DNA of 17,590 nt, from NCBI GenBank assembly GCA_964447495.1, contig CAYUTF010000070.1:1-17590 (forward strand). The letters are read 5' to 3'. The translations under genes and the position numbers were made by a program. The DNA comes from an uncultured archaeon (GTDB lineage Archaea; Asgardarchaeota; Lokiarchaeia; Sigyniarchaeales; SOKP01). Shown piece after piece: positions 1,776 to 17,292 of the stretch; positions within the stretch are counted from its first letter, which is position 1, and every line of letters starts with the position of its first letter. The notes under the pieces were generated by a model. The model did no database searches, was not told where the DNA came from, and saw only the letters and a list, made by a program, of their open reading frames with translations.

Positions 1776-3203
1776 GTGGATTTAGATATGAGCTTAGAAA
1801 AGTTAAAATCCCAATTTCCTAAGAAAGGACTTGCGAAATATTTTCACCAAAAAGGTTTAAAATCGCAGAGAGAGCTATTCCCAAATGGAGGAGGTCCACA
1901 AGATGATTTTTTATATGGTTTTTTAGGTCTGATTTATGACGGAGTTAATAATCTGGGCGATATAAAACAGAAAATGCGTTATATATTTACAACAACCATG
2001 AGACAACTAGTAATAACTGATAAAAATGTTGATGAGTATCTTAAAATAGCTCAATTAAAAGAATTCGTTCAAATTAACAATAAAGATTATATTACTTTAA
2101 CGAAGGAGGGTCGAATCTATGTTGAAAGTTGCTATCTTGAAATACAACATGAATCCTATTGGTTAAAGAAATTTCTCAGCGAAAAGGCAGTAATGGGTAT
2201 TACCGCTTTATTTTTAGTAATTTTATCTACCTTGAAAATAATAACTGGATTACAAATATCCTCCCAGGGTATGATAACTGATGGATTTGAAAATCTAACG
2301 GACCTGATTAAAGTAGGTATTATTTTTATTGTTAGTCTTCAATTTAAAAAAGATAAACTTGCAAGCATAATTATTTTGCTTATGATGCTTTTTACGGGAG
2401 TAGGCTTAATCTGGTCAAGTATAGAAGCGTTAATATTTCCAATGATTATCGTTCCTACGGTACAAGGATTTTTTATAGTATTCTTGTCAATTACTCTTAA
2501 TCTGGGATTAATGTTTTTAAAAGGGCTTGTAGGAAAAACTTCAGGCAATCTTTCATTGATAAGTGATTCAAAGGATTCAAAGTTAAATATGTTAATATCT
2601 ACTGGTGTCATGATTGGATTAACCTTTGCCATTTTTAACCTCTACTTTGTTGATGCCCTTATAGCCATTATTATTGCTGTAATTGTTTCAAAGGAAGGTA
2701 TTGAAATTCTCATTGAAATCATAAGAAAACGTGAAGAATTCGATCTATCAACCCTAAAGATATTTGCGGATACACTTTATGATAATAGGCTCACAGGGTA
2801 TCTCTTGGCGAATATTGCAAGAGAATCGTTTGATCGAGAGACATTACTCCTAAAATTTGAGTATGGTTTAAATAGTGGACGAAAGTATTATAACGGGTTT
2901 GCCGACTTTTTTTATAAGGAATTAGAAGGAAAAGTGGCAGGAAAATATTTGGATACCTTGACTGAAGGAGGATATATTAAGTGTAATGATAATATATTAG
3001 AACTTACAAATAAAGGAAGAGAAAATTACTTAAAACTAAAACAACTTGAAAGATTCACTCATAAACAACACTTACGTGAAGGCTCATCAAAGAAAATGTA
3101 TGGTATACTCTCATCGATAATTTGTATTTCACTCATTGTGTTACTAATTCTTTTTGGGCCCTCAATCATTGAAAGTGTGAACTCGTGGTTAGCAAGCCTT
3201 TAG
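1776..3203 (+). CDS. Cation diffusion facilitator (CDF) family transporter core flanked by winged-helix-like domains
   Basis: Central ~6 hydrophobic segments with the CDF-like signatures SSQGMITDGFENLTD (TM2), GNLSLISDSKDSKLN (TM5) and FVDALIAIIIA (TM6). LTxxGR wing motifs occur on both sides. The true start may be the ATG at 1788 rather than the GTG at 1776. Confidence 0.8.
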   Translation: MDLDMSLEKLKSQFPKKGLAKYFHQKGLKSQRELFPNGGGPQDDFLYGFLGLIYDGVNNLGDIKQKMRYIFTTTMRQLVITDKNVDEYLKIAQLKEFVQINNKDYITLTKEGRIYVESCYLEIQHESYWLKKFLSEKAVMGITALFLVILSTLKIITGLQISSQGMITDGFENLTDLIKVGIIFIVSLQFKKDKLASIIILLMMLFTGVGLIWSSIEALIFPMIIVPTVQGFFIVFLSITLNLGLMFLKGLVGKTSGNLSLISDSKDSKLNMLISTGVMIGLTFAIFNLYFVDALIAIIIAVIVSKEGIEILIEIIRKREEFDLSTLKIFADTLYDNRLTGYLLANIARESFDRETLLLKFEYGLNSGRKYYNGFADFFYKELEGKVAGKYLDTLTEGGYIKCNDNILELTNKGRENYLKLKQLERFTHKQHLREGSSKKMYGILSSIICISLIVLLILFGPSIIESVNSWLASL

Positions 3204-3264: not shown

Positions 3265-5304
3265 TTATATTTTTAGTTGAGTAGATACTAAATCTTCTTC
3301 TTTCGAAGAACTTCCCATGGATATTATATAAGGCATATCCTCAACTTCCCATCTCTTTGTTTCAGGGTTATACCATGCAAGGTTTTTTTTAGGAATTTCA
3401 ATTGTCACCTTCTGAGTTTGATTTGGACTTAGAAATACTTTTTTAAATCCTTTTAATAATTTTTTAGGTCTATCAACGTTGGAATTCTCAAAACCAACAT
3501 ATAATTGAATAACCTCCTCACCAGCGATTTTTCCTATATTGGAAACCTCTATAGAGGCAATTATTATATCACCAGAGCTTTTTACTTCTAAATTGTCATA
3601 TCGATATTGTGTGTAGCTTAAGCCGAAGCCAAAAGGAAATCTTGGATTAATTTCTTTCTTATCCATCAAAGTATACCCATGATAATATCCATATTCAATC
3701 TCATCTATATGAGCTTTAAAGTAGGGCAAATCAGACTCCTTTTTAGGTATTGTAAAAGGTAACTTTCCACTGGGATTAACTTTGCCAAATAATATGTCTG
3801 CAAGAGCATTTCCTCCTTGCATTCCGGAATACCAAGCCATTAATACCGCACTTACATTGTCTATCCATTGTTCCATCATAATAGCACTTCCCCCGATCAA
3901 AATTACAATAGTATTGGAGTTTAGGTCTGAAACTGTTTTAATAATATTAATATCATCTGCTTTTAACTCCAAAGATTCTCGATCTCCTACCCTTCGTATA
4001 AATTGGCGAATATATTCTCCTTCATCGCGAAAGGTATATCCCGCAATAATAACCACAGCATCAACATTTTGACTTAAATTTTTTACTTCTTCTAAATCCT
4101 TTCCCTCGGTATATACTACGTCTACTTTATTACCAACGAAATTTTTAATTCCTTGTAATGGAGTAACAATATTATCCTGGTGCACCTGGCTACTTCCATG
4201 ATCCCCTGTATTTTTTAAATCAGCTAATCTTCCAAAGACTGCTAATTTATTGATTGTGTTCATTTCTAATGGGAGTAAATCATTCGAATTTTTTAAAAGC
4301 ACCATACTTTTTTCTGCTACTTCACGCGAAAGTCTCACATGCTCTTCACAACCAACTAAATCTGAATGATATTGCTGAGGATCTTTTCGCGTGGTGTAGG
4401 AAAGCATGGTACTTATTATTCTACGTACGGAATCATCGATAAGATCGATCGATACTTCTCCCTTCTCTACTGCTTTTATTAATTTTGTTCCATAATGCTT
4501 CACTCGAGGCATCTCTACGTCCAAACCCCCATTTATACCTGCAATTGTATCATATAGCCCATCCATCCAATCAGAATGGACAAAACCTTTAAATTGCCAG
4601 TCTCCTTTAAGAATATCCCTTAGTAAATGTGTATTATGTCCACAATATTTTCCATTTAATTTATTGTATGCACTCATTACCGTTGCACATCCATTCTCAA
4701 TACATTTCTTAAAATGGGGTAGATATACTTCCCGAAGAGTGCGTTCATTCATCACTACGTTAACTTTAAACCGAGAATACTCGATACTATTTGCCGTAAA
4801 ATGTTTTATAGTTGCCATTACATTGTGTTTTTGTACTCCCCGAGATAGTGCCGATCCTAATTCACCGAGATGATAAGGGTCTTCTCCATATGTTTCTTGG
4901 GCTCGTCCCCATGCGGGATGGCGTAGGAGATTGATACATGGTGCTCCGTAAAGATTGCCTCCATGAGCTCGGACTTCCTTCCCTATTACTTCACCGACTT
5001 CTTCCTCAAGCTTTATATCCCAACTTGCCCCTCGTGCCATTGAAACGGGAAAACATGTAGACCCTGGAATTACAACCCCTCGTGGACCATCGATGAAACG
5101 AAAGGCAGGAATACCAAGTCTTTTAAGACCTCCTCCCGGTATTACACTCCTTCCTTTACCTCTATCTTTTAACATGATTTTAAAAAAATCATGGCCTGAC
5201 ATTAAATGTACTTTTTCCTTCAAAGTCATTTCTGATAATGCTTGAGATGCAAAATCTTCTATTTCTTGCGGAGTCAGTCCATCTTTAATCTTTAACACCA
5301 TCAA
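3265..5304 (-). CDS. Glycoside hydrolase family 3 beta-glucosidase with C-terminal fibronectin-III-like domain
   Basis: GH3 motifs DGPRGV, FPVSMARGASWD, GRAQETYGEDP, KHF, MSAYN, SDW (nucleophile Asp), SMVLLKN, NPSGKLPFT, FPFGFGLSYT and GEEVIQLY...LKGFKKV. No evident signal peptide. Likely start is the ATG at 5301. Confidence 0.95.
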   Translation of the reverse strand: MMVLKIKDGLTPQEIEDFASQALSEMTLKEKVHLMSGHDFFKIMLKDRGKGRSVIPGGGLKRLGIPAFRFIDGPRGVVIPGSTCFPVSMARGASWDIKLEEEVGEVIGKEVRAHGGNLYGAPCINLLRHPAWGRAQETYGEDPYHLGELGSALSRGVQKHNVMATIKHFTANSIEYSRFKVNVVMNERTLREVYLPHFKKCIENGCATVMSAYNKLNGKYCGHNTHLLRDILKGDWQFKGFVHSDWMDGLYDTIAGINGGLDVEMPRVKHYGTKLIKAVEKGEVSIDLIDDSVRRIISTMLSYTTRKDPQQYHSDLVGCEEHVRLSREVAEKSMVLLKNSNDLLPLEMNTINKLAVFGRLADLKNTGDHGSSQVHQDNIVTPLQGIKNFVGNKVDVVYTEGKDLEEVKNLSQNVDAVVIIAGYTFRDEGEYIRQFIRRVGDRESLELKADDINIIKTVSDLNSNTIVILIGGSAIMMEQWIDNVSAVLMAWYSGMQGGNALADILFGKVNPSGKLPFTIPKKESDLPYFKAHIDEIEYGYYHGYTLMDKKEINPRFPFGFGLSYTQYRYDNLEVKSSGDIIIASIEVSNIGKIAGEEVIQLYVGFENSNVDRPKKLLKGFKKVFLSPNQTQKVTIEIPKKNLAWYNPETKRWEVEDMPYIISMGSSSKEEDLVSTQLKI

Positions 5305-5428: not shown

Positions 5429-6307
5429 TTAACTCTCGTTTATAAAATTCTGAATGATCGGTATAATTTTTTGGGGAGCATCCTCTTGCAGAAAATGAGA
5501 GGCATTCTCGATTTCAAACTTTTCGATTCTTGGATAGATTTTGTCCCACCAGGCGATCATTTTCGTAGGGAAGATCGGATCTTTCATCCCCCAGATCAAT
5601 ATTTTTTCTTTTTCCTTTAAAATATCTAAATTTTGCCATATATAGTGCATAGTTTCAGCACTAGGATGGGAATCACCGACGGGAATGTCTTTTGGCCAAG
5701 CAAAAGCTCCAATAAGCGACTCCCTATTAGGGAATGGAGCACTATAGGCTTTTAACATCGAATCTGTAATCTGATTTTTGTTATATATACCCGATTTGAT
5801 AAGTCCTGCAATATCGGATATAAAGGACTCATAAATACCTTTTTCAATTAAAGGCTGATACCAAGGCTTAGATCCTTCCCTCATTACCCCAATACTAGTG
5901 TTCATAATAACCAATCGTTTTATCATATCTGGATTATGAACTCCAAATCCAATTCCTATAGGACCTCCCCAATCTTGCACTATTAAAGTGATATCATGTA
6001 AATTAAGTCCTAATAATAGTTTTGTACTATTTTCAAGATGCTGTTTGAGGATATAGGGTTTATCTTGAGGAACATCGCTCTTTCCAAACCCCATCTGATC
6101 TGGGACAATCACTCTATTACTTTTGGATAGCGTTTCAATAAAATTTCGATATAAGTAGCCCCAAGTAGGCATACCATGGAACAACACAATAGGTTCACCC
6201 TTTCCCTCATCAACATAGTGCATTTGGAACCCGTTGATCTTCTTATAATGGGGTTTATAGGGAAAAGTACCTTCAAAGGTTTCATCCCTTAGATATTCTC
6301 TCTTCAT
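5429..6307 (-). CDS. Alpha/beta-fold hydrolase, haloalkane dehalogenase / OleB-like
   Basis: MHYVDEG, HGMPTW, PDQMGFGKSD, nucleophile elbow VQDWGG (Asp-Trp), WGMKDP (catalytic acid) and ASHFLQED (catalytic His). Confidence 0.9.
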   Translation of the reverse strand: MKREYLRDETFEGTFPYKPHYKKINGFQMHYVDEGKGEPIVLFHGMPTWGYLYRNFIETLSKSNRVIVPDQMGFGKSDVPQDKPYILKQHLENSTKLLLGLNLHDITLIVQDWGGPIGIGFGVHNPDMIKRLVIMNTSIGVMREGSKPWYQPLIEKGIYESFISDIAGLIKSGIYNKNQITDSMLKAYSAPFPNRESLIGAFAWPKDIPVGDSHPSAETMHYIWQNLDILKEKEKILIWGMKDPIFPTKMIAWWDKIYPRIEKFEIENASHFLQEDAPQKIIPIIQNFINES

Positions 6308-6374: not shown

Positions 6375-7643
6375 TTGATTATTATGGTTGATGATAATTT
6401 AAATAGTTATATGTTAAAATTTATCGAAGACATCTGCAATGAAATCGGGCCACGAGAATCTGGAAAAGAACAAGAAATCCTTGCCGGCAATAAAATTGAA
6501 GAAGAACTAAAAAAATGTTGTGATGAAACTCATCAGGAGGAATATATTAGCAGTCCTCATGCGTTTTTAGGGGGAATCAGATATGGTGCGTTATTAGCTT
6601 TAGTTTCAATTGTTCTATATTGGCTTTCATTATTAATTGACCTCAATATTTTACCATTTCCCAACATATATAGTTTTATATTCACCTTAATCGCGGTGCT
6701 TTTAATAATTCTAACTATTAGCTATTTTATCACAGAAGTGATGAAATATCATGAGTTTTTTGATTTCTTATTTCCAAAAAGAACATCGAAAAATATAGTT
6801 GGAACTATAAATCCTACAAATGAGATAAAGCATACAATTATTTTTTCAGCTCACCACGATTCTCAATTTGAGTTTAATACTTTTTATTACTTTAAACGCT
6901 TTGGACAAATGATCATTAATTTTGGGTATTTAGGAGTCGCAATTATTTTTATTATCATTATCGTAAAAATTATCTTCCAAATAATTGCTTTTGAATTTGA
7001 TATTCTATTCTTTGCCTTTGGTATCTTCTTTCTTGCTTTTATTCCCATTGCATTGGCATATGTATTTTTTCATAGTTATAAACCCGTTCTTGGCGCTTTT
7101 GACAACTTATCTGGGGTTTCCATTGTATTAGGAATTGGAAAATATTTATACGATAATAAGGATAAAGATATTTTTCCCAAAAATACTAGAGTTTACTTAA
7201 TTTCATTTGCAGGAGAGGAAGCTGGGCTTCGAGGATCAAAACGGTATATTGAATCGCATTTAGAGGATCTAAAGAAAAATAAAACTCTCATTGTTAATAT
7301 GGATAGTATCGCTAAAAAAGGTTCACTGGTAGTTGTTGACAAAGAGCCAGGTATTGGTGCTACCCATGATCCCAAAATATATGAACCCTTGTATGACATA
7401 GCAAAAAAAGTTAATCCTATAGCGAAGATTGGAAAATTACCTTTTGGAGCAACGGATGCTGCGACGTTTAGTAAAAAAGGAATATCTGCCACAACGATCT
7501 CCGGATTAAATCTCTCGGACGAGTTAGTTCCTTACTATCACACGCGATTAGACACTCCCGAAGTTATTGAAAAAGAATCTTTAGGTCAAATAGTTGAGAT
7601 ATGTGTGAAATATCTTAATCTTATTGATAAGGGAGAAGCATGA
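6375..7643 (+). CDS. Membrane-embedded M28 family zinc metallopeptidase
   Basis: M28 ligand motifs SAHHDS, GAFDNLSG, GEEAGLRGS, NMDSI and YYHTRLDTPE, with about four hydrophobic helices inserted. Likely start is the ATG at 6384. Confidence 0.9.
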   Translation: MIIMVDDNLNSYMLKFIEDICNEIGPRESGKEQEILAGNKIEEELKKCCDETHQEEYISSPHAFLGGIRYGALLALVSIVLYWLSLLIDLNILPFPNIYSFIFTLIAVLLIILTISYFITEVMKYHEFFDFLFPKRTSKNIVGTINPTNEIKHTIIFSAHHDSQFEFNTFYYFKRFGQMIINFGYLGVAIIFIIIIVKIIFQIIAFEFDILFFAFGIFFLAFIPIALAYVFFHSYKPVLGAFDNLSGVSIVLGIGKYLYDNKDKDIFPKNTRVYLISFAGEEAGLRGSKRYIESHLEDLKKNKTLIVNMDSIAKKGSLVVVDKEPGIGATHDPKIYEPLYDIAKKVNPIAKIGKLPFGATDAATFSKKGISATTISGLNLSDELVPYYHTRLDTPEVIEKESLGQIVEICVKYLNLIDKGEA

Positions 7644-7660: not shown

Positions 7661-8065
7661 TTACGAGGATTCATATAAAAAAATAATTTTTTTAATATAG
7701 GTTTCAATAGAATTTAATGCATCGTTTACATGTGAGTTGTGATCAACAATGAATGTTAAAAATATATTCTCATCGCATTGAATGATAACAAGCATGTACA
7801 AATTTAACTCAGCAACAATTTTAATTAGCTTATTTTCACCTACTACTCTACTAAGACTGTTTGCACTCTCTAAAACTGATGCACACATCGAAGATAACTC
7901 ATGACCGTTTAAATTCTTAATATCGGTATTAAAAATATTATATATGAGCTCTCCATTCTTGTAAGATAGTAATATTCCTGGTAAATCTCCCTTTTGCTTT
8001 AACTCGTAAAGAATTTGTATTAACCGGCCAAATTTTTGGATAATACTACTATTTTCAGGATTCAT
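7661..8065 (-). CDS. Roadblock/LAMTOR-like domain protein (divergent)
   Basis: 134 aa with an alpha-beta-beta-alpha-beta-beta-beta-alpha pattern: GILLSYKNGELI, ELSSMCASVLESANSL (compare RIAAMTAALLSLSE in 15282..15662), IVAEL/MLVIIQC/IFLTFIV. Confidence 0.75.
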   Translation of the reverse strand: MNPENSSIIQKFGRLIQILYELKQKGDLPGILLSYKNGELIYNIFNTDIKNLNGHELSSMCASVLESANSLSRVVGENKLIKIVAELNLYMLVIIQCDENIFLTFIVDHNSHVNDALNSIETYIKKIIFLYESS

Positions 8066-8126: not shown

Positions 8127-9290
8127 TTAAAACTTATGAAATAATCCAAAAAATCCTCTCCTTTTCGCTTTAATAGCCTGTTGAGGACACATTTCCATAC
8201 AACACAAACACGATATACACACTTCTGTCTTGAATTTCGGATAATCTTTACTTCTAAATTCGATTGCTTCAGCAGGGCAAATTTCGGAGCATTGTCCGCA
8301 TTGGATACATTTCTTTTTTTGTAATTTAGGAACACGTTTAGTAACACGATATACTATTCCTCCAGTAATTGAAGCTGCTAATTTGGTCATTCGTTTTCCC
8401 GGTACTTTAAATTTAGGAGTTATTCTTTTTGCTTCTTCTAAACTCATACCGACAATTTCAATATCTTTTAAATCCCCTATTCCTAAACCCCTTTCATAAG
8501 CACTTTTTAGATGTGGTACGTAATCAAGCCCTTTAAACTTGCCAATTTCAAGAGCGATTGTGTCAAGCGCCAATTCATCAGTACCGACTAAAACTAAGTT
8601 CCAATTCTTCATTTTTCCAGAAACTGGTCCCATAGCCCCTTGCATTATTGTGTGGAGGTCATAAATAATTAATCGATTAGGTTTATTTTTCACAACCCAC
8701 GCATAATTATCTGCAAGCACTTCTCCAAATTGATCTGGAGTTTTCCCTAAGAGATGCGTTTTTGCTTTTAGTCCTCCTGGAATAATTCCCCAGTAATTTT
8801 TTATTGCCCCCGTTATTGTCGCTTCTCCGTGAGTTTTCAATTTAGGTAAATTTATTAGAAGATCGCAGTCCACTACAGGTTTTGATATATAACAATTTTT
8901 GAATCTTAATGCACCTTCTATTTGTACCTCAATAGGAATCTCTCTTTCAAAGTCAATGAAATTTATGCCTTCTCTCTCAACAATATCGTAAATTCCTACT
9001 TTTTGAGCAATTTTTGTGGCAAAAGTTTTAATCTGACCGGGAGAATCCCCAATATTGATGTTTTCTCTTGGAACCTTCTTCTCCTTGAGATAAGCCAGTG
9101 CGCCCTCTACAAATGCGGGTTGAGTACATGCATCCTTTGTAGCTCTAAGTAAATTTGGTTTTAAAAGAATATTTTTACATTCCGATAACTTAAATGAGAA
9201 TGAGTCTTCAACCATTTTAATAGCGGATACAATAGCTTCTTGGATTGAATTATAATCCTTCACGTTTACTATTGCGATCTTAGTTCCCAT
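8127..9290 (-). CDS. DUF362 domain protein with C-terminal 2x[4Fe-4S] ferredoxin domain
   Basis: DUF362-type motifs ILLKPNLL, IGDSPG, LINLPKLKTH and ITGAIKNYWG. Two CxxCxxCxxxCP motifs: CIQCGQCSEICP and CISCLCCMEMCP. Confidence 0.9.
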   Translation of the reverse strand: MGTKIAIVNVKDYNSIQEAIVSAIKMVEDSFSFKLSECKNILLKPNLLRATKDACTQPAFVEGALAYLKEKKVPRENINIGDSPGQIKTFATKIAQKVGIYDIVEREGINFIDFEREIPIEVQIEGALRFKNCYISKPVVDCDLLINLPKLKTHGEATITGAIKNYWGIIPGGLKAKTHLLGKTPDQFGEVLADNYAWVVKNKPNRLIIYDLHTIMQGAMGPVSGKMKNWNLVLVGTDELALDTIALEIGKFKGLDYVPHLKSAYERGLGIGDLKDIEIVGMSLEEAKRITPKFKVPGKRMTKLAASITGGIVYRVTKRVPKLQKKKCIQCGQCSEICPAEAIEFRSKDYPKFKTEVCISCLCCMEMCPQQAIKAKRRGFFGLFHKF

Positions 9291-9615: not shown

Positions 9616-10155
9616 ATGTCAGAAATCGATATAATGTTCAAGGTTTGCCTTTTCGGAGATGGTGGGGTCGGAAAAACAACATTAATTAATCGCTATTTAA
9701 CTGGGGTCTTTAAATCAAACTCTACGATAACTATCGGTGTGGATTTCCATCTTAAAAAGCTTGAAGTCGAAGGAAAAACGGTAAGCCTTCAAATTTGGGA
9801 TTTTGCTGGAGAGGATCGGTTTCGATTTTTATTGCCTAGTTATGTGGTTGGCGCTTCTGGAGGCATCTTTATGTATGATATAACACGATATTCGAGTTTA
9901 AAGAATTTTCCTGATTGGATAACTATTTTTAAGAAAGGTTACATTGGAAACCATCAGCAGATTCCTGTCATCATGGTAGGAGGAAAATTGGACTTACAAT
10001 ATAAAAGAACCGTCTCTAGTAAAGAAGCTTATGAAATAGCGAAAAAACATAATCTTTATGGCTACGTTGAATGCTCTTCGAAGAATGGACAAAATGTGGA
10101 AGATATTTTTTATGAAATCGCTAAATTAATGATTTATAGAGCAAAACTTTCCTAA
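9616..10155 (+). CDS. Rab-like small GTPase (Ras superfamily)
   Basis: G1 GDGGVGKT, G2 TIGVDF, G3 WDFAGE, G4 GGKLD, G5 ECSSK. RabF-like segments IGVDF, SLQIW, RFRFLL, YVVGA and FMYDIT. No C-terminal Cys. Confidence 0.95.
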   Translation: MSEIDIMFKVCLFGDGGVGKTTLINRYLTGVFKSNSTITIGVDFHLKKLEVEGKTVSLQIWDFAGEDRFRFLLPSYVVGASGGIFMYDITRYSSLKNFPDWITIFKKGYIGNHQQIPVIMVGGKLDLQYKRTVSSKEAYEIAKKHNLYGYVECSSKNGQNVEDIFYEIAKLMIYRAKLS

Positions 10156-10181: not shown

Positions 10182-11024
10182 CTAAAATTTCGTAACAAAT
10201 ATTTCATCTAACGAATTAATAATCAAATTTGGGATAACATTATTATCATTATTATTAATATTCTTTTTAAGCTCAATTATTTGTTTTCTTGTGGTAACCC
10301 CTGTCAAGACTAACACTGTTTTAATTTTTGCTCGATTTCCAGCTAATATATCTGTATCTAAACGGTCTCCAAAAATAACAGCTTCTTTATTATGAGTATT
10401 ATTCTTTTCTAGAATTCTTTCAATTCCTATGGGGGATGGTTTACCAAAAATATAGATAGGTTCTTGGGCTGTACAGATCTTTAATGCTGCTACCATAGAT
10501 CCTGCTCCTGGCAACTCTCCATCCTTATCTGGTAAGGTTGCATCGGCATTAGTTGCATAAAATTGAGCATGACCTTGAGAGATGCAATTTTGAGCGATTG
10601 CTAATTTCTTATAGTTAAAATCTCGATCTAAACCAACAATTACATAGTCAATATTGCGGAAATTCCTAACTTGATCACATATTTGATGACCTTTTGCTTT
10701 TAATTCTTCTTTAAGCCCCTTTTCACCAATTACATAAATATTTGCCTTGGACTTCAATTTTGTTATCTCCTCAGCAGCAATAGACGCGCTCGTGTAAATG
10801 TCATCACTTACACAGTCAATATTGAGTTTTTTTAATTTCTCTACATACATTTGTCGTGTTAAGGTAGAGTTGTTTGAATTAAACACCACTTGGATTGAAA
10901 GTTTTTTCAAATGAGTAATGATATCATCTACTCCAGGGATTAAAGTATTACCGCGATAAATGACCCCATCTAAATCAAAGATAGCCAATTTAATATCCTT
11001 CAAATCATCAATTAATTCACGCAT
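10182..11024 (-). CDS. HAD-superfamily subfamily IIA (NagD-like) phosphatase
   Basis: Motif I FDLDGVIY, SNNS, cap motif ATNAD...PGAGS, GKPS, and GDRLDTDI...LVLTGVT. Confidence 0.92.
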   Translation of the reverse strand: MRELIDDLKDIKLAIFDLDGVIYRGNTLIPGVDDIITHLKKLSIQVVFNSNNSTLTRQMYVEKLKKLNIDCVSDDIYTSASIAAEEITKLKSKANIYVIGEKGLKEELKAKGHQICDQVRNFRNIDYVIVGLDRDFNYKKLAIAQNCISQGHAQFYATNADATLPDKDGELPGAGSMVAALKICTAQEPIYIFGKPSPIGIERILEKNNTHNKEAVIFGDRLDTDILAGNRAKIKTVLVLTGVTTRKQIIELKKNINNNDNNVIPNLIINSLDEIFVTKF

Positions 11025-11055: not shown

Positions 11056-12240
11056 TTAAAATAATCCAACAGGTAATCCCAAAATTGCAATAAAGATTTG
11101 GATACCAATTGGGATAAAAATTGGATTTAATATATTGTCGGCGGTAAACACAGGGAAATAATCGGTTATGAAGAAAATTACTGCTCCGATGATGGCATAG
11201 ATCGGACCTACAAAGAATAATCCAACAATATAAGCAACTACGAATCCTGAAATAAAACCTTCTATAGATTTCGTTTCTTTACTTCTTACTCGAACTTTAT
11301 GTTTCCCATAATTTCGACCAATTAATGCCGCTGTCGCGTCAGAAAGACACGCAATTAAGATACCCGCAAAAAATGCTGAGATGTGAATGATCCCAGCCAT
11401 ATAGAGCATATAGCTAAAGATAAAACCGGTCATGATATATATCTGGGGACCAGCAGCATTTCTTTCCTTATTCCTTAGCATAGATTTTGTCAAGAAATTG
11501 AAAAATGAATATTCTGGACCCCACAATACTCTAATCAAATCGGATATTATCGCAAAAACTAAAGATGCAACTAAAGCAAACATTGTAATGTCAATGACCG
11601 CATTAAAATCGTCAACACTATACGGATAATCCGAAATTGGACCCCATAAGAGATTATATGAGGGTTCTACTTGATTTATAAATACAATAACCGTGTTGTT
11701 TACAATTTGGGTTATAGGGAGTATAAGAAATAATCCATAATACGCAACCAATATTAAGAGCCCTGTTAAATGAAAACTTTTCCGGAATACTTCCATTTTC
11801 ATTGTTATTTCGACTCGATAGGGATCCTCCCTCGTCATGCGCAAAATATATCTTCTGATAATCGATGGTCTTTTAATATCATCTCCTATTTTGCCTTCTG
11901 TATGCATCTCTTGTTGCAGTTTTTTAAAATCTCTTTTAATAATTGTAGTGAAAATAAAATTTATTAATATAATAAGACCGATCCACCAAATCATAAATCC
12001 ATTATACGGATATGGAAAAAATCTGAAGATTGAATTGTAAAAACCAAAAAGCAAAAAGCAAACGCCACAGATTATTGAAGATACCCCTCCATACTTGTTA
12101 TTTGACCGGCATCCCTTAACACCAATAAAAAACATCAAAAACATTAAGGTAAAAAAAAACAAGGAGAGCGATGTGTTATATATACCCGCAACTATCGTCC
12201 AATAGTCAGTCATGATTAACAATTTAACCAATAATAACAA
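11056..12240 (-). CDS. CTP-dependent isoprenoid/lipid kinase (phytol/dolichol kinase, Dgk1-like; cytidylyltransferase-family fold)
   Basis: Multi-pass membrane protein with EVFRKSFHLTG, SDATAALIGRNYGKHK, KSIEG and DNILNP motifs. Likely start is the ATG at 12213. Confidence 0.85.
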   Translation of the reverse strand: MLLLVKLLIMTDYWTIVAGIYNTSLSLFFFTLMFLMFFIGVKGCRSNNKYGGVSSIICGVCFLLFGFYNSIFRFFPYPYNGFMIWWIGLIILINFIFTTIIKRDFKKLQQEMHTEGKIGDDIKRPSIIRRYILRMTREDPYRVEITMKMEVFRKSFHLTGLLILVAYYGLFLILPITQIVNNTVIVFINQVEPSYNLLWGPISDYPYSVDDFNAVIDITMFALVASLVFAIISDLIRVLWGPEYSFFNFLTKSMLRNKERNAAGPQIYIMTGFIFSYMLYMAGIIHISAFFAGILIACLSDATAALIGRNYGKHKVRVRSKETKSIEGFISGFVVAYIVGLFFVGPIYAIIGAVIFFITDYFPVFTADNILNPIFIPIGIQIFIAILGLPVGLF

Positions 12241-12332: not shown

Positions 12333-13388
12333 ATGTTCGATCGTTCAAGAAACTTCATAAGGGTTTTATCTGGGGAGCTCACTAATAACATTCCCCTTTA
12401 TTGTACGGGATATCCCCGCTCAGAATTTATGAACAATTTCAAAACAAGGTATACACTCAATCACACAAACAAGAATCTTAATTTAAACAATAATGATTAT
12501 GAATTAATTTATAATATGGGTTTTGATGCAATTTCACTCTGGGATTTTCGCCGTGGTAAAGGAGGGTATAATATAAATGATCAAATGCGAGTTGATGGGT
12601 GGGGAAGGCTTATTAAGAATGATTGGTATTTCTGGGATGGAATGTTTAAAAATAAGGCAGTCATTGATTCGTGGAATCATTTAAATCTTCCCTCCAAAAA
12701 GAGCATAAGATCATTATCAACATTCATTCTAAGAGCTAAAGAAAATCTAATACCGGTGCTTTCTTTACCGGGATTATTTGAAAAAACATGGCAGTCAATG
12801 GGATTTGTTTATTTTGCAAAAATGCTTAAGAAAGATATTGAATTTGTCAAATATGTTATTGAATTCTTTGCAAAATACATAGAAAAACTTATCTCGCAAC
12901 TCTTAAATGCTGAAGCTTGTATCTTTCTTATAGCAGATGATTGTGGCTATAAAAATCGAACCTTTATTCCAACAGATATATGGGATAATTTATTTTTTAC
13001 ACCCTACTCTAAAATTGTTAATGATATTCATAGCAATAAAGGAATGGTGATCATTCATTCCGATGGATATATCACTGATTTAATACGTTCATTTATTGGT
13101 ATTGGATTTGATGCTATTCAAAGTTTAGAACCCAGTGCGGGTGTAAATATTTTTGAGTTGTTTAAACATTATTCAAATGAAGTGTGCTTTGTTGGAAATC
13201 TCGACATGAGCTTATTAGCATTTGGTTCACAAAGTGATGTAAAAACCTATGTGGAAAAATTAATTGAGGTTTCACGAAAATCTCACACTCCTTTAATAGT
13301 GAGTCCTACGCAGCAACTAGATAAAACTATTAGTCCTTTAAATATTAAAATGATGATTGATACAACTATAAATTTTAAATTAGAATAA
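12333..13388 (+). CDS. Uroporphyrinogen decarboxylase / MtaA-CmuA superfamily protein
   Basis: VDGWGR, GLFEKTWQSMG, IADDCGYK, IIHSDG, GFDAIQSLEP and CFVGNLD resemble URO-D-family TIM-barrel proteins. Substrate unknown. Confidence 0.8.
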   Translation: MFDRSRNFIRVLSGELTNNIPLYCTGYPRSEFMNNFKTRYTLNHTNKNLNLNNNDYELIYNMGFDAISLWDFRRGKGGYNINDQMRVDGWGRLIKNDWYFWDGMFKNKAVIDSWNHLNLPSKKSIRSLSTFILRAKENLIPVLSLPGLFEKTWQSMGFVYFAKMLKKDIEFVKYVIEFFAKYIEKLISQLLNAEACIFLIADDCGYKNRTFIPTDIWDNLFFTPYSKIVNDIHSNKGMVIIHSDGYITDLIRSFIGIGFDAIQSLEPSAGVNIFELFKHYSNEVCFVGNLDMSLLAFGSQSDVKTYVEKLIEVSRKSHTPLIVSPTQQLDKTISPLNIKMMIDTTINFKLE

Positions 13389-13461: not shown

Positions 13462-15054
13462 ATGAATATAGATGAACTCTTGAAAATATATTCAAGAATC
13501 TTTAAATTTCGCAGACTATTTGTGCGAGATCTCTCCATAACACCACGTGGGTTCTTATATTTTCTCATTTCTTTTGTTTTTTGTACTATATCATTGAATT
13601 ATATTGTAGTTTATATTTTAAGATTTAGTGTGGAAGAATTATTATTTAACGGACTTGGATTGATTTCGATATTGAGTATTTTTCTTACGATTGTCATTGC
13701 TGGTTTTATTGTAGATAGGATAAAAGACCGGGTTCGATTATTGCTCATTTCATCTCCTGTGACCATTTTGGGTTTATTATTTGTGATCTTTGGAAATGTA
13801 TATGAAATTATTGGATTTTCTCTTATGATTTTCTCGACAGGCGTCTTTATAATTGATCTGCTCACAATTCATATTCATGAATCAAACATCCTCAACCGGG
13901 GAAGATTATTAGGATATCTCTTTTTCCTTTCTTTTATTATATCTCATTTGATTGTGCTATTTACATATGGAAACACAATTTCTGTTATCATAATTGAAGC
14001 TCTAATTCTCGTTGTCATTTTTTTAATTGCGAGGAATTATCACTATAAAGAAACTGAAGAAAGATTGACTTCCAACAAGAAATTTATAGAGATAATTACA
14101 GGTACTTATCATAATTTGGGGTATCTCCTCGTGTTTCTCATATTAGGGTATATCATAGGAAATGCTTTTTCGACCTATGGAGAATTGAATATAAATCCAG
14201 TGATCTTCATTTTCTTATTTATGATTCTTTTTGTTATTTTTGGAGTGGCTTTAGATAATTTTGGGAGAAAAACGACCTTTTCCGGAGGATTACTCTTGAT
14301 TTCATCGATAATAATTTTTTCTGGAGTGGTTAAAAATTTAATTATTTCTACTTCAATTTTTTTTGGAGTGGCTATTCCGGTAATTTTTATTATTTTATTT
14401 ACCCTTTCTGGCGATTTCGCTACTGAGAGAAACGCAATTAGATATCGAGCAAGAATGATATGCACCTTTCTCTTATTATTCATGATTGGTCTTATCACAG
14501 GAGTTCTCATCCATTATTTATTGAACCGAATATACTCCTCTAATCCTTTACTTTTTTATTGGATTACCCCTTATCTTCAAGGTCTAAGTCCTTTTCTGCT
14601 CATCGTAACGTTGGTCTGGATTATCCCCTTACCTGAAATCCTTTCATATAAGGAAGCAGATTGGGCAGATTCATTACGAAGTATATATGTATTCAATTCT
14701 GCTGCGGTGTGTTTATACACTAAAAATTTTAAACCAGAACAGAATAGTAATATCCCAAGTGAAGACTTAATCACAGGAGGTTTTACAGGGATTTTGGCTT
14801 TAATTTCAGAAATTACCAATGAAAAACGAAATTTGAACATTATCGATAAGGAAGGGGTGAAAATATATTTTTCCTACGGAAAATCAGTCATAGCCGCCCT
14901 AATATCAACAAAATATCTGCCTGTATTGTCTAAAAAATTAGATATTTTTACACGATCATTTGAAAAACGATTTGACTATGAATTAGCCCATTTTACAGGA
15001 AAGATTAATCCCTTTCACGATGCCAAAAAACTAATATATCGGTATTTCAAATAG
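13462..15054 (+). CDS. MFS-like multi-pass membrane protein fused to a C-terminal longin-like domain
   Basis: About 12 hydrophobic segments in two halves, each with an MFS motif-A-like loop (AGFIVDRIKDR and GVALDNFGRK), and an E...RGR/E...RYRA loop in each half. The soluble tail from about aa 405 (nt 14674) has a longin-like pattern: IYVFNSAAVCLY, EDLITGGFTGI, KLDIFTRSFEKRF. Confidence 0.8.
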   Translation: MNIDELLKIYSRIFKFRRLFVRDLSITPRGFLYFLISFVFCTISLNYIVVYILRFSVEELLFNGLGLISILSIFLTIVIAGFIVDRIKDRVRLLLISSPVTILGLLFVIFGNVYEIIGFSLMIFSTGVFIIDLLTIHIHESNILNRGRLLGYLFFLSFIISHLIVLFTYGNTISVIIIEALILVVIFLIARNYHYKETEERLTSNKKFIEIITGTYHNLGYLLVFLILGYIIGNAFSTYGELNINPVIFIFLFMILFVIFGVALDNFGRKTTFSGGLLLISSIIIFSGVVKNLIISTSIFFGVAIPVIFIILFTLSGDFATERNAIRYRARMICTFLLLFMIGLITGVLIHYLLNRIYSSNPLLFYWITPYLQGLSPFLLIVTLVWIIPLPEILSYKEADWADSLRSIYVFNSAAVCLYTKNFKPEQNSNIPSEDLITGGFTGILALISEITNEKRNLNIIDKEGVKIYFSYGKSVIAALISTKYLPVLSKKLDIFTRSFEKRFDYELAHFTGKINPFHDAKKLIYRYFK

Positions 15055-15085
15055 ATCGGTATGTTTTAAATAAGATATAAGTAAA

Positions 15086-15099
15086 ATGCCTATAGGCAT
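15086..15099. promoter_or_regulatory. Perfect 14-bp palindrome ATGCCTATAGGCAT
   Basis: Self-reverse-complementary sequence, read directly in the gap between the MFS-longin and Roadblock genes. Function is inferred only. Confidence 0.4.
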
Positions 15100-15139
15100 C
15101 CATGCTCTTACCTACATATTATACAACTTAATAAGCTAC

Positions 15140-15175
15140 AAATAAAAAAAAATAAATAAATAAAAAAAAATAAAT
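15140..15175. repeat. Exact 18-bp tandem duplication (AAATAAAAAAAAATAAAT x2), low complexity
   Basis: 15140-15157 and 15158-15175 are identical. The tract contains only A and T. Confidence 0.6.
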
Positions 15176-15281
15176 AATACCAATCTACTTTAAATATAAG
15201 TAATGGTTGAAGATAATTATTATCTAATAAAAAACCCTCTTATTATTATTCAATAACTAAATATTTTGGAAAAGAAGGAGA

Positions 15282-15662
15282 ATGTCAAAAGTGGAACAAA
15301 GCACCCCAGATTCACTCGATGATCTACTTAAAAAATTATTAGCCGCAATTCCAGAAGTAAAAGCTGCCGCTATCGTCTCTGCTGAAGGCTTGCCTATTGC
15401 CTCTGCACTTCCAAGGGAAGTAGATGAGACCCGGATTGCTGCAATGACTGCCGCTTTGCTCTCCTTATCCGAAAGAGCCATTATCGAGATGCAAAAAGGA
15501 GATTTTGATCAGTTGTACATCAAAGGGAGCGATGGTTACCTTTTAGTGCTCCAAGCTGGCCCGAATGCAGTGCTAACGGTGTCCGCAGATAAGGACGTAC
15601 GACTTGGGTTAATCTTGTTAGATTGCAGGCGGACATGCGAAAAAATTGCACAATTGATCTAA
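15282..15662 (+). CDS. Roadblock/LC7 (MglB/LAMTOR2-like) domain protein
   Basis: Canonical pattern AAAIVSAEGLPIASAL, RIAAMTAALLSLSER, QLYIKGSDGYLLVLQAG, AVLTV, LGLILLD. Confidence 0.92.
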   Translation: MSKVEQSTPDSLDDLLKKLLAAIPEVKAAAIVSAEGLPIASALPREVDETRIAAMTAALLSLSERAIIEMQKGDFDQLYIKGSDGYLLVLQAGPNAVLTVSADKDVRLGLILLDCRRTCEKIAQLI

Positions 15663-15873
15663 TTTTGTTCAAAAAAATGTTGAGAATAAATCTCAAAAGT
15701 TATCATCTTTGATTTTTTGAGAAAAATTATTTTCATCTATAAATTAGATATATAATTAATATTTTCGTTCTGATGAGACATAATCTTACGAGATGCCAAA
15801 TACTTAAAAATCTCTATTTGATTATTTTTTAAGGAGGAAGGTTATCAAATTGGTATAAGAAATATCGTAATTT

Positions 15874-17292
15874 TTGATTATTATGGTATATTTCCAAGTT
15901 AGTAGAATCGGATTTAATTGTGGTTATGAAAGAGAAAATTGTGATTCTTATCCAGATCGTTGTAGAGAATGTATAACCTCATATTTTGCAAAAGTTGGTA
16001 TTGACGCGAACCAAAATATGAAGTTATTTGAAATGGATTCAGAAGAAAAACGAGTTCAGATGCAGCAAACCTTAATCTGGTATAAATTTTTAGATGTTTT
16101 AAACATAAAGCATATTATTTTGATAACTAAAGACTCTGGGCTTCTTATAGTGGATTATCCTGTCTCAAGTGAAGAGTTAAATGTTGATGTATTAATAGGT
16201 TTCATACAAGCGAACATTTTTTTTTCTACTTCAAGAGCAAATTTCGAATCAAGAGCAGTAGATGGAAGCTCAGGAAAAACTGGAGCAAGTACTATGAAGA
16301 ATCATAAGCTTTATGAGTTTCAATATGAGACGTTTAATATCCTCTTAAAAAGCGGTAAAAATATTGAGGTATGCTTGGTATTAGATCAAAAAGCAGCACC
16401 TAGTTTGAAGGAACGTTTATCTGAATTCTTGGATGAGTATGAACAAACATATCAAAAAAAAATTGAAATCCTATTAAGAACTGGGATGCTCAATTTTGAA
16501 GATACTATCAATTTTATAATAGATTTTTTCAACATCAAACTTGTTTTTCCCATGGTCCTTACTCATACTTTATTACCAAGCGATTTAAATACAATTAATA
16601 AAAATCCCATCCAAAAAGCTATAATCGATTTTGCGAATGAACTATTAGTATCAAAGAAGTTCTTCTTCATCAATAATCTTTTTAATAAGGTTAAATCTGT
16701 ACTTAATTCTGACCCATATATCATAATGTATGAAATTTATCAATTTTTGGAGAAAAACATTATCATTCCTTCGAATCTTGAACTGGTAGAAAAGGAAGTA
16801 AGGAAATTTAATGAAGTTCGCGCAAAACGGATTGCTGAAAATGAATTAATATCACCCATAATTGCAAACGATGAGGCAATAATTGATATAAAAGAAAAAG
16901 CGCGTACTTTGGATGCTGAGGAAGCTAAGAAGTTGATGAATATGTATGTTAAAAAAGGGGAAACAGCGGAAAAAGCATTAGTTTATAAAGAAGCGCAAAA
17001 GGAATATGAAAAAGCTCTCTATTTAGCGACAGGATTTAACTTTGAGTTAGATATTGGCAGAATATCATTCATGGTTCTCGAACTTGACAAAAAGATTAAA
17101 ACACTCGAAATAGAGTATGCATTAGAAGCGGGAGAAAAAGCAGAAAAGAAAAAAGATTACTATAATGCAATTCAACACTTTCAGCAGGCTATTATTTTTT
17201 TGAACGATGATGGTATGATAAATGCAAATGGGAATGAAACAAAATTAATAAAATTAGAAAAACGAATTGTATATCTCCAAAAACAACACTAA
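15874..17292 (+). CDS. Multidomain protein: N-terminal Cys cluster, longin-like domain, helical middle region, C-terminal TPR-like repeats
   Basis: CX6CX6CX2C at the N-terminus. Longin-like IKHIILITKDSGLLI, DVLIGFIQA and RLSEFLDEYEQTY. Two repeats, GETAEKALVYKEAQKEYEKAL and GEKAEKKKDYYNAIQHFQQAI. Likely start is the ATG at 15883. Confidence 0.75.
   Translation: MIIMVYFQVSRIGFNCGYERENCDSYPDRCRECITSYFAKVGIDANQNMKLFEMDSEEKRVQMQQTLIWYKFLDVLNIKHIILITKDSGLLIVDYPVSSEELNVDVLIGFIQANIFFSTSRANFESRAVDGSSGKTGASTMKNHKLYEFQYETFNILLKSGKNIEVCLVLDQKAAPSLKERLSEFLDEYEQTYQKKIEILLRTGMLNFEDTINFIIDFFNIKLVFPMVLTHTLLPSDLNTINKNPIQKAIIDFANELLVSKKFFFINNLFNKVKSVLNSDPYIIMYEIYQFLEKNIIIPSNLELVEKEVRKFNEVRAKRIAENELISPIIANDEAIIDIKEKARTLDAEEAKKLMNMYVKKGETAEKALVYKEAQKEYEKALYLATGFNFELDIGRISFMVLELDKKIKTLEIEYALEAGEKAEKKKDYYNAIQHFQQAIIFLNDDGMINANGNETKLIKLEKRIVYLQKQH

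Follow-up and report, generated by a model that had tools for sequence, protein, structure and literature searches.

The window analysed here, a stretch of DNA of 17,590 nucleotides (nt), is the whole of contig C70 (CAYUTF010000070.1) of an uncultured Asgard archaeon of the Lokiarchaeia, whose genome assembly comprises 3.81 Mb in 223 contigs and is 98% complete. Towards its right-hand end, three consecutive genes on the + strand encode, respectively, a 530-residue transporter of the major facilitator superfamily (MFS) fused to a C-terminal longin domain (13462-15054); a 126-residue Roadblock/LC7 protein, here termed the core Roadblock or Robl126 (15282-15662); and a protein, here termed P3, with a four-cysteine (Cys4) cluster, a longin domain and a TPR- or MIT-like helical tail (15883-17292). 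Further upstream lie a small GTPase of 179 amino acids (aa) at 9616-10155 on the + strand and a divergent Roadblock-like protein of 134 aa, Robl2, at 7661-8065 on the - strand. An earlier note on this DNA had proposed that these genes might specify a prokaryotic nutrient-sensing assembly; its starting point, three successive + strand genes each with a longin-like or Roadblock domain, is borne out by Pfam, by AlphaFold2 folds and by Foldseek and VIA structural matches. The window has a G+C content of about 31% with even base composition throughout, and contains 16 open reading frames (ORFs), mostly nameable by Pfam; database homologues are labelled Lokiarchaeota or Promethearchaeota.

Assignment of the first of the three proteins to the MFS rests on a Pfam MFS_1 score of 35.4 bits, just over the cut-off of 33.4, across residues 220-403. 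A hydropathy scan gave 20 peaks, merged by eye into about 12 transmembrane segments within residues 1-394, and the last 136 residues (395-530; nt 14644-15051) form a soluble C-terminus. This C-terminus does not fall by sequence into any curated Pfam longin family, the closest matches being sub-threshold (Sybindin, 15.9 bits against 25; Fuz_longin_1, 15.2 against 26.1). Its AlphaFold2 model, based on an alignment of 32 homologues, has a pLDDT of 86.6 and a pTM of 0.82, and DSSP assigns to it the order beta-beta-alpha-beta-beta-beta-alpha-alpha, an order that corresponds to the longin topology and lacks an N-terminal helix. Foldseek comparison with the PDB returned 34 matches at E<=0.001, and those listed are all Roadblock or longin folds: MglB, TRAPP Bet5/Trs23, zeta-COP, AP sigma/mu, Mon1-Ccz1, BLOC-3 and LAMTOR, with Foldseek TM values of 0.5-0.65 for Bet5, zeta-COP, AP sigma and MglB. 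The fused architecture is kept in 50 close database homologues (349-550 aa), and the longin domain is retained at all 20 of the more distant MFS-longin loci. Within the phylum the C-terminal domain family is present, in several architectures, in 72 of 151 genomes, and the MFS-longin fusion is widespread. In the literature found on Asgard longin domains combined with major facilitator or transmembrane proteins, the MFS-longin fusion is not described. The main text of 10.1101/2020.10.19.343400, as far as it was available, contains none of the words 'MFS', 'transporter' and 'transmembrane'; its supplementary tables may list the architecture or the P3 family.

The core Roadblock is a secure member of Roadblock/LC7 (PF03259), scoring 72.2 bits against a gathering cut-off of 23, and it matches the solved Asgard Roadblocks 7f8m (1.3e-25) and 9jue (2.1e-18). 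An orthologue was found in all 41 related genomes, with 84-93% identity within the genus and 59-64% in other families. Elsewhere in the source genome, at locus L093 (contig C3:17457-21449), a Roadblock paralogue of 71% identity, in a 235-aa frame, adjoins two multidomain Ras-type GTPases (449 and 621 aa), and a further Roadblock lies only a few genes off; this is a tighter Roadblock-GTPase cluster than that of the window. In other families of the order (L081-L087), 6 of 13 loci have a tandem double-Roadblock protein of about 250 aa at some 6 kb from the Roadblock orthologue. It was considered as a counterpart of Robl2 and rejected, its own orthologue here being on contig C2 (40940-41707).

The ORF of P3 was called from a TTG at 15874. 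All 29 homologues share an N-terminus of the form M-V/P/G-Y/F-F that begins no more than two residues from the called start, and the start was revised on these grounds to the ATG at 15883, which is probably the real one. A Pfam scan of P3 found no family. An AlphaFold2 model built with 46 aligned relatives (pLDDT 87.5) places Cys 13, 20, 27 and 30, a C-x6-C-x6-C-x2-C cluster, on a short N-terminal hairpin and helix. An extra helix (residues 54-74) is followed by a longin fold at residues 74-221 (nt 16102-16545), which VIA aligns over 113-130 residues (Z 10-11.4, root-mean-square deviation 2.7-3.3 A) with AP sigma/mu, VAMP7, Sec22, synbindin, TRAPP and the Lokiarchaeota longin 8yqg; the top Foldseek match is MK-D1 Roadblock3. 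Beyond it come a small helical domain (about 208-296) and a helical C-terminus (299-469). The description of this gene in the earlier note as Cys/longin/TPR stands for the cysteine cluster and the longin fold, and for the TPR part the matches are weak: TPR_2 scores 17 bits against a cut-off of 27, and the P3 family profile matches consensus TPR proteins at 1.4e-10 to 3.9e-4. The tail also resembles MIT domains, with VIA Z values of 9.3-9.6 that are within the range common for helical bundles. Neither Pfam nor VIA detected a DENN or GATOR-type GTPase-activating protein (GAP) domain in P3. The family is small, with 254 representatives at E<=0.001 among 1.84 billion proteins, and a protein atlas places P3 in an unnamed Promethearchaeota cluster.

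Two side observations concern relatives of P3. Its longin-plus-helical core (residues about 60-310) forms the C-terminal end of many proteins of 1000-1900 aa; Pfam gave no family for six of seven such proteins, and FG-GAP and Ig-like repeats for one. These features suggest large surface proteins with a cytosolic longin tail, a theme that they would have in common with the MFS-longin fusion. A P3 paralogue with 36-44% identity, on contig C15:54332-55702 in the source genome (L045) and at 19 places in all (L041-L059), was seen within one genus only. At 12 of the 19 same-genus loci a Ras-family gene is next or next but one downstream of the paralogue on the same strand, and Ras-like matches occur within the fetched flanks at 17 of the 19. 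The surroundings also include a class IV aminotransferase, PanB and a 541-588-aa protein with Ras and zinc-ribbon domains, and in many relatives a 318-aa GTPase of the Gtr1/RagA type (Pfam 5e-22), so that this locus is arguably a better Rag-flavoured neighbourhood than the window.

The earlier note had also pointed to a Rab-like GTPase and a second Roadblock close by. The first is confirmed as a small GTPase of the Ras/Rab type (Pfam Ras, 153.6 bits). It does not belong to the Rag/Gtr family, scoring 13.7 bits against the Gtr1_RagA cut-off of 22, and at 179 aa it leaves no room for a C-terminal Roadblock domain. The second Roadblock stands in weaker form: Robl2 falls below the Pfam Robl_LC7 gathering cut-off (17.2 bits against 23) and is recruited only by an iterated Roadblock profile from its own genome, which gathers 30 ORFs with Robl2 among them, and it is therefore taken to be a divergent Roadblock relative. 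Robl2 is conserved beside M28/M20 peptidase genes, and the GTPase sits in a syntenic block at most same-family loci. Whether the iterated own-genome profile was started from the MFS C-terminus or from the P3 domain, it ended with one and the same set of 33 ORFs, so that these form a single longin-like family; among them is a stand-alone longin-like protein of 141 aa at 543-968 on the + strand (Fuz_longin_1, 26.0 bits against a cut-off of 26.1). Pfam matches in the whole genome number 74 for the Ras family and 16 for Roadblock, and an NCBIfam search assigned none of the MFS protein, P3, the two Roadblocks and the 141-aa longin protein to a family.

The three genes show none of the usual signals of co-transcription, namely short gaps and the absence of internal promoters. 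The intergenic distances are 227 bp between the MFS and Roadblock genes and 220 bp between the Roadblock gene and P3, and the observation in the earlier note that gaps above 200 bp do not make a tight operon holds good. The region before the Roadblock gene (15055-15281, + strand) is promoter-like: in an alignment of 19 same-genus sequences about 200 bp are conserved, with a TATA-like box some 95 nt ahead of the start and a GGAG-type site immediately in front of the gene. This block is unchanged whether the gene upstream is UROD-like, MFS, CTP-transferase-like or another, and it travels with inverted copies of the Roadblock gene. In the second intergenic region (15663-15882, + strand) the 3' half carries the conserved upstream block of P3, which lies about 60-130 nt before the ATG and is common to 10 orthologues at other genomic places. 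Since each gene has its own conserved upstream region, the trio is not an operon. Within the P3 block an element (window 15757-15830; L031-L040) consists of a T-rich word of the type TTTCGTT, an ACA word about 8 nt later and a TTAA(A/T)AAT box, and may represent a shared regulator site together with a TATA box.

Comparison with relatives places the locus in a family-wide block. In gene order it reads Roadblock-like <, M20 >, (DUF362 <), Ras >, (small ORF <), HAD <, CTP-transferase-like <, [UROD-like >], [MFS-longin >], Roadblock >, [variable genes], Rpo7 >, DUF359, S24e, S27a, Kae1, Bud32, S28e, L7Ae. Pfam was used to check the names of the downstream genes, with which contig C97 of the source genome begins. 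The whole block, housekeeping genes included, keeps the same order across the genera examined. The Roadblock gene is a constant of it, whereas an MFS-longin orthologue was found in 4 of the 40 other related genomes; it follows that the Roadblock does not need the MFS protein. In all, MFS-longin orthologues (42-56% identity) were located in 20 genomes, the source genome included. From 20 same-genus loci the MFS gene had looked like a recent insertion, a view overturned by 20 same-family loci, which show it to be an old and often-lost neighbour; the gene is often lost, and the Roadblock has never been dependent on it. Farther afield the association is absent: neither a Ras gene nor an MFS-longin gene was found within about 8 kb at any of 13 Roadblock loci of other families, and none of the 20 more distant MFS-longin loci has an adjacent Roadblock, while at 4 of these 20 a divergent Ras gene is next door (one paralogue group in the genus).

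P3 is a different case. Full-length orthologues (56-72% identity) were found in 10 of the 40 related genomes, and none of these 10 loci holds the MFS or the Roadblock gene in flanks of up to 9 kb, two of the loci being short contigs. Conversely, P3 follows the Roadblock at none of 53 other Roadblock-orthologue loci (20 same-genus, 13 other-family and 20 same-family, the last from nine more genera). The gene-order check suggested by the earlier note has divided the trio, P3 orthologues being scattered and the MFS and Roadblock genes remaining neighbours at many loci, and MFS-longin, Roadblock and P3 do not stay together as a set to any extent beyond that of background synteny. The last 55 bases of the contig (17536-17590, + strand), in which an Rpo7-like gene begins at about 17572, are identical to the first 55 of contig C97, which starts with Rpo7, DUF359, S24e, Kae1 and Bud32. 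This 55-mer occurs nowhere else in the genome, and P3 is accordingly placed between Roadblock and Rpo7. In the source genome, the genes found beside P3 in relatives are located mid-contig on other contigs. Apparently P3 and the region upstream of it were moved in this lineage into the variable slot that separates Roadblock from Rpo7, a slot that carries differing inserted genes in many relatives. In 20 extra same-family loci the slot genes include no further longin, Roadblock or Ras gene, and the idea that slots beside the Roadblock preferentially gather longin genes was dropped as not significant, since once the MFS gene is counted as ancestral it rests on about 2 of some 45 inserted genes by a rough count.

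On balance, and with moderate confidence, the three genes are best understood as separately expressed members of the Asgard longin/Roadblock toolkit that lie side by side around a core Roadblock sited next to a housekeeping cluster. The core Roadblock would be the anchor, at a fixed place in the family-wide block; the MFS-longin gene would be an old, dispensable neighbour, gone from many lineages and relocated in one genus; and P3 would have come in this species only, relocated with its own upstream region. The MFS protein might then act as a secondary transporter whose cytosolic longin domain docks or regulates a small GTPase, or another longin or Roadblock protein, at the membrane. The Roadblock, as a dimer, could regulate GTPases or provide a scaffold in the manner of MglB/LAMTOR, and P3 could serve as a soluble, zinc-binding longin adaptor with a TPR/MIT-like helical tail that would bind protein. 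The analysis demonstrates the domain content, the gene order in the different genomes and the distinct conserved upstream regions. We infer these biochemical roles from the folds only, and contact among the three proteins, if there is any, is likewise only inferred.

Several observations weigh against so neutral a reading. The MFS-longin gene adjoins the Roadblock gene at 13 of its 20 orthologue loci, in seven genera, with never a gene between them, and this spread indicates that the pair is old. In close relative G023 another longin-domain protein, of 432 aa, fills the slot before Rpo7. The remaining points are statistical, and are to be read with the limits that the null places Roadblock/longin ORFs uniformly at random, ignoring gene-poor or island structure, and that the window itself had been picked from many beforehand. 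Of 5000 trials with the 62 Roadblock/longin ORFs of the genome, 3.7% placed three within 2.4 kb somewhere, as they lie on this contig (P=0.037), and 9.7% placed three within 4 kb. The contig has 5 of the 62, and five fell within 17.6 kb in 0.44% of trials (P=0.0044); when 61 Ras-type ORFs were added (117 in total), its six became the genome maximum (P=0.0092). Among the 117 genes there are 21 neighbour pairs within 3 kb where 9.3 are expected, 13 of the 21 being of mixed type, and 30 within 5 kb where 14.2 are expected; none of 3000 shuffles reached either figure. The excess does not depend on the contig, for without C70 there are still 18 pairs within 3 kb (P=0.005) and 26 within 5 kb (P=0.0007). 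With a roughly twofold excess of neighbours throughout the genome, two such genes that lie close together have a fair prior probability of not being neighbours by chance. The caveat of the earlier note that some clustering is expected by chance applies in part: a Ras gene within 6 kb is unremarkable given 74 Ras matches in 3.81 Mb, and clustering within the genome is moderately above uniform chance, the contig being enriched for such genes (P about 0.004-0.04).

The same adjacency and excess lend themselves to a more specific proposal, which we regard as possible but rather improbable: that the MFS longin domain and the Roadblock form a heterodimer, and so a two-part membrane platform that recruits or regulates a small GTPase, with P3 an incidental newcomer. 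In solved complexes, longin and Roadblock folds use the same edge to dimerise, and TRAPP, Ragulator and Mon1-Ccz1 are among the fold matches of the two longin domains. The pairing, moreover, survives rearrangement. Twelve of the 13 adjacent cases are on one contig and one spans two contigs with overlapping ends; nine are co-directional and four convergent, the Roadblock having been inverted in the latter together with its upstream region. In two further genomes the two genes are each at contig ends, an arrangement consistent with adjacency but unproven. Against this stand the presence of the Roadblock in every genome and the rarity of the MFS orthologue; the separate promoter regions; the lack of linkage in other families; and the breaks in the pairing, three genes lying between the two in g14 and the MFS orthologue being away from the Roadblock in all four genomes of genus g15. 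In addition, the kept adjacencies all lie within the family-wide block, where unrelated neighbours such as HAD/CTP-transferase-like or Roadblock/Rpo7 retain their order just as well as the pair does. A complex prediction for the MFS C-terminal domain with the Roadblock scored 0.00 against a mark of 0.32, and was counted neither for nor against.

A second neighbour of the transporter gene deserves mention. A gene of the URO-D/MtaA-CmuA-like methyltransferase family (12333-13388, + strand; Pfam URO-D 7.8e-17, with the MtaA and CmuA models of NCBIfam far below their cut-offs) ends 73 bp before the MFS-longin start on the same strand, and the order UROD then MFS recurs in three other genera (L123, L127, L128). 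A link of the MFS gene to this methyltransferase-family enzyme is as plausible as one to the Roadblock, and the neighbourhood may reflect a substrate link to methyl-group metabolism. Of the g15 genomes in which the MFS orthologue lies elsewhere, one (L134, G208:C28) has it four genes from two tandem 754-aa proteins with P3-like longin domains, a proximity that was set aside because one such case is expected by chance in about 20 loci, by estimate. At two other g15 loci a Roadblock, or a longin plus Roadblock protein, lies within five genes.

A broader extension, which we consider unlikely, is that polytopic transporters with a built-in cytosolic longin domain provide membrane docking sites for the Roadblock, longin and small-GTPase network in the Asgard archaea of this phylum. 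Such docking would be a fused prokaryotic forerunner of the eukaryotic transporter-Ragulator-Rag logic, and the old vicinity of MFS-longin and core Roadblock, the arrival of P3 and the genome-wide twofold excess would then all reflect functional coupling.

The proposal of the earlier note in its full form, by which MFS-longin, Roadblock, P3, the Ras-type GTPase and Robl2 would together be a prokaryotic counterpart of the lysosomal transporter, Ragulator, Rag and GAP, appears very improbable. Every fold class of the lysosomal machinery is indeed present within 17.6 kb, in what is the richest window of the genome, and the P3 paralogue is found near Ras-family genes at the frequencies given above and, in several relatives, near a GTPase of the Gtr1/RagA type. 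The trio, however, exists in the source genome only; the GTPase is of the Ras/Rab type and carries no C-terminal Roadblock domain; and five unrelated enzyme genes on alternating strands separate the trio from the GTPase and the second Roadblock. These three points make the reading unlikely. The transporter, further, is an MFS protein and not a carrier of the amino-acid/auxin-permease type, and P3 shows no detectable DENN or GATOR-type GAP domain by Pfam or VIA. What survives of the proposal is the parts list and a modest statistical excess, and what does not is the conserved module, the operon and the Rag-type switch. That the position of P3 is merely an assembly artefact, a chimeric join near a contig end of a metagenome-assembled genome, is scarcely credible: P3 does end 298 bp from the contig end, the break coincides with a 55-bp overlap of the kind usual at graph branches, and no relative has the arrangement, but the sequence runs without interruption from Roadblock across P3 into the start of Rpo7, the 55-mer confined to the end of C70 and the start of C97 gives a consistent path through Roadblock, P3 and Rpo7, the slot is variable in many relatives, and composition is even across the window.

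In eukaryotes, SLC38A9 is the transporter part of the lysosomal Rag-Ragulator machinery. The fold classes of that machinery, which also has the longin GAPs FLCN-FNIP and GATOR1 (PMC10933270, in the portion available), are brought together in one place here, and the fold matches of the two longin domains include LAMTOR, Rag C-terminal domains and Mon1-Ccz1. The likeness ends with the Ras/Rab-type rather than Gtr1/Rag-type GTPase of the window, with the failure to find DENN or GATOR-type domains and with the lack of conservation of the trio. A putative operon encoding a LAMTOR1-like Roadblock, a Rab-like GTPase and a DENN protein, proposed to be FLCN-like, has been described as conserved in most Asgard archaea (10.1101/2020.10.19.343400, in the text available). 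The window resembles it in that a member of the Roadblock superfamily shares one neighbourhood with a small GTPase and a longin-related regulator, and differs in that the trio occurs in a single genome, a DENN domain was not detected and the GTPase is 5 kb away.

In relation to the bacterial MglA-MglB pair and the solved Asgard Roadblocks 7f8m, 9jue and 7yh1 (PMC10933270, same portion), Robl126 is a clear sequence relative of the Asgard Roadblocks and MglB ranks among the top fold matches for the MFS longin domain, while in contrast to MglA-MglB no MglA-type GTPase is adjacent here. The longin domain of P3 is similar to that of the Lokiarchaeota Roadblock-Longin protein 8yqg and to eukaryotic longins, to which P3 adds the Cys4 cluster and the TPR/MIT-like tail. 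The MFS fusion places its longin domain on a carrier with 12 transmembrane segments instead of on a tail-anchored SNARE.

Families of Asgard Roadblock, longin and GTPase proteins have been published, together with their fusions and some of the structures (PMC10933270), and the passages available from the same source state that in MK-D1 operons do not generally join GTPase genes to those for Roadblock or longin proteins. The text 10.1101/2020.10.19.343400, as far as its available text goes, counts 130 Roadblock-superfamily asCOGs, places most genes for eukaryotic signature proteins outside conserved neighbourhoods, and reports NPRL2-like longin domains fused to two-component domains in Asgard archaea. 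Which of the Asgard longin, Roadblock and GTPase paralogues cooperate is described as an open question, on which gene order is said to be uninformative (PMC10933270, in the portion available). The neighbour excess found here contrasts with such published statements, and a twofold excess in one genome suggests that gene order carries more signal than has been assumed. The locus is no ready-made 'archaeal Ragulator'; the leads that it offers are the transporter-longin fusion, the MFS longin domain and core Roadblock as a candidate pair, and the neighbour excess. What is new is the transporter-longin architecture and the neighbour-excess statistic, and not a new machine.

The remaining genes of the window were named by Pfam. 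From the left they are a zinc ribbon (166-408), a fusion of a cation-efflux (CDF) protein with a winged-helix domain (1776-3203), GH3 (3265-5304), an alpha/beta hydrolase (5429-6307), an M28 peptidase (6375-7643), a DUF362 protein with ferredoxin (8127-9290), an HAD-IIA phosphatase (10182-11024) and a CTP-transferase-like membrane protein (11056-12240), the last with a match below the cut-off. tRNA and Rfam scans of the window gave no match. Positions 1-55 match the start of contig C201 exactly, in reverse, and exact 55-mers at both ends are typical of the overlaps of a k=55 assembly graph, so that the contig can be extended on both sides. The protein at 1776-3203, in which a CDF membrane domain is followed by a C-terminal HTH_45 domain, is an unusual fusion of a transporter with a regulator.

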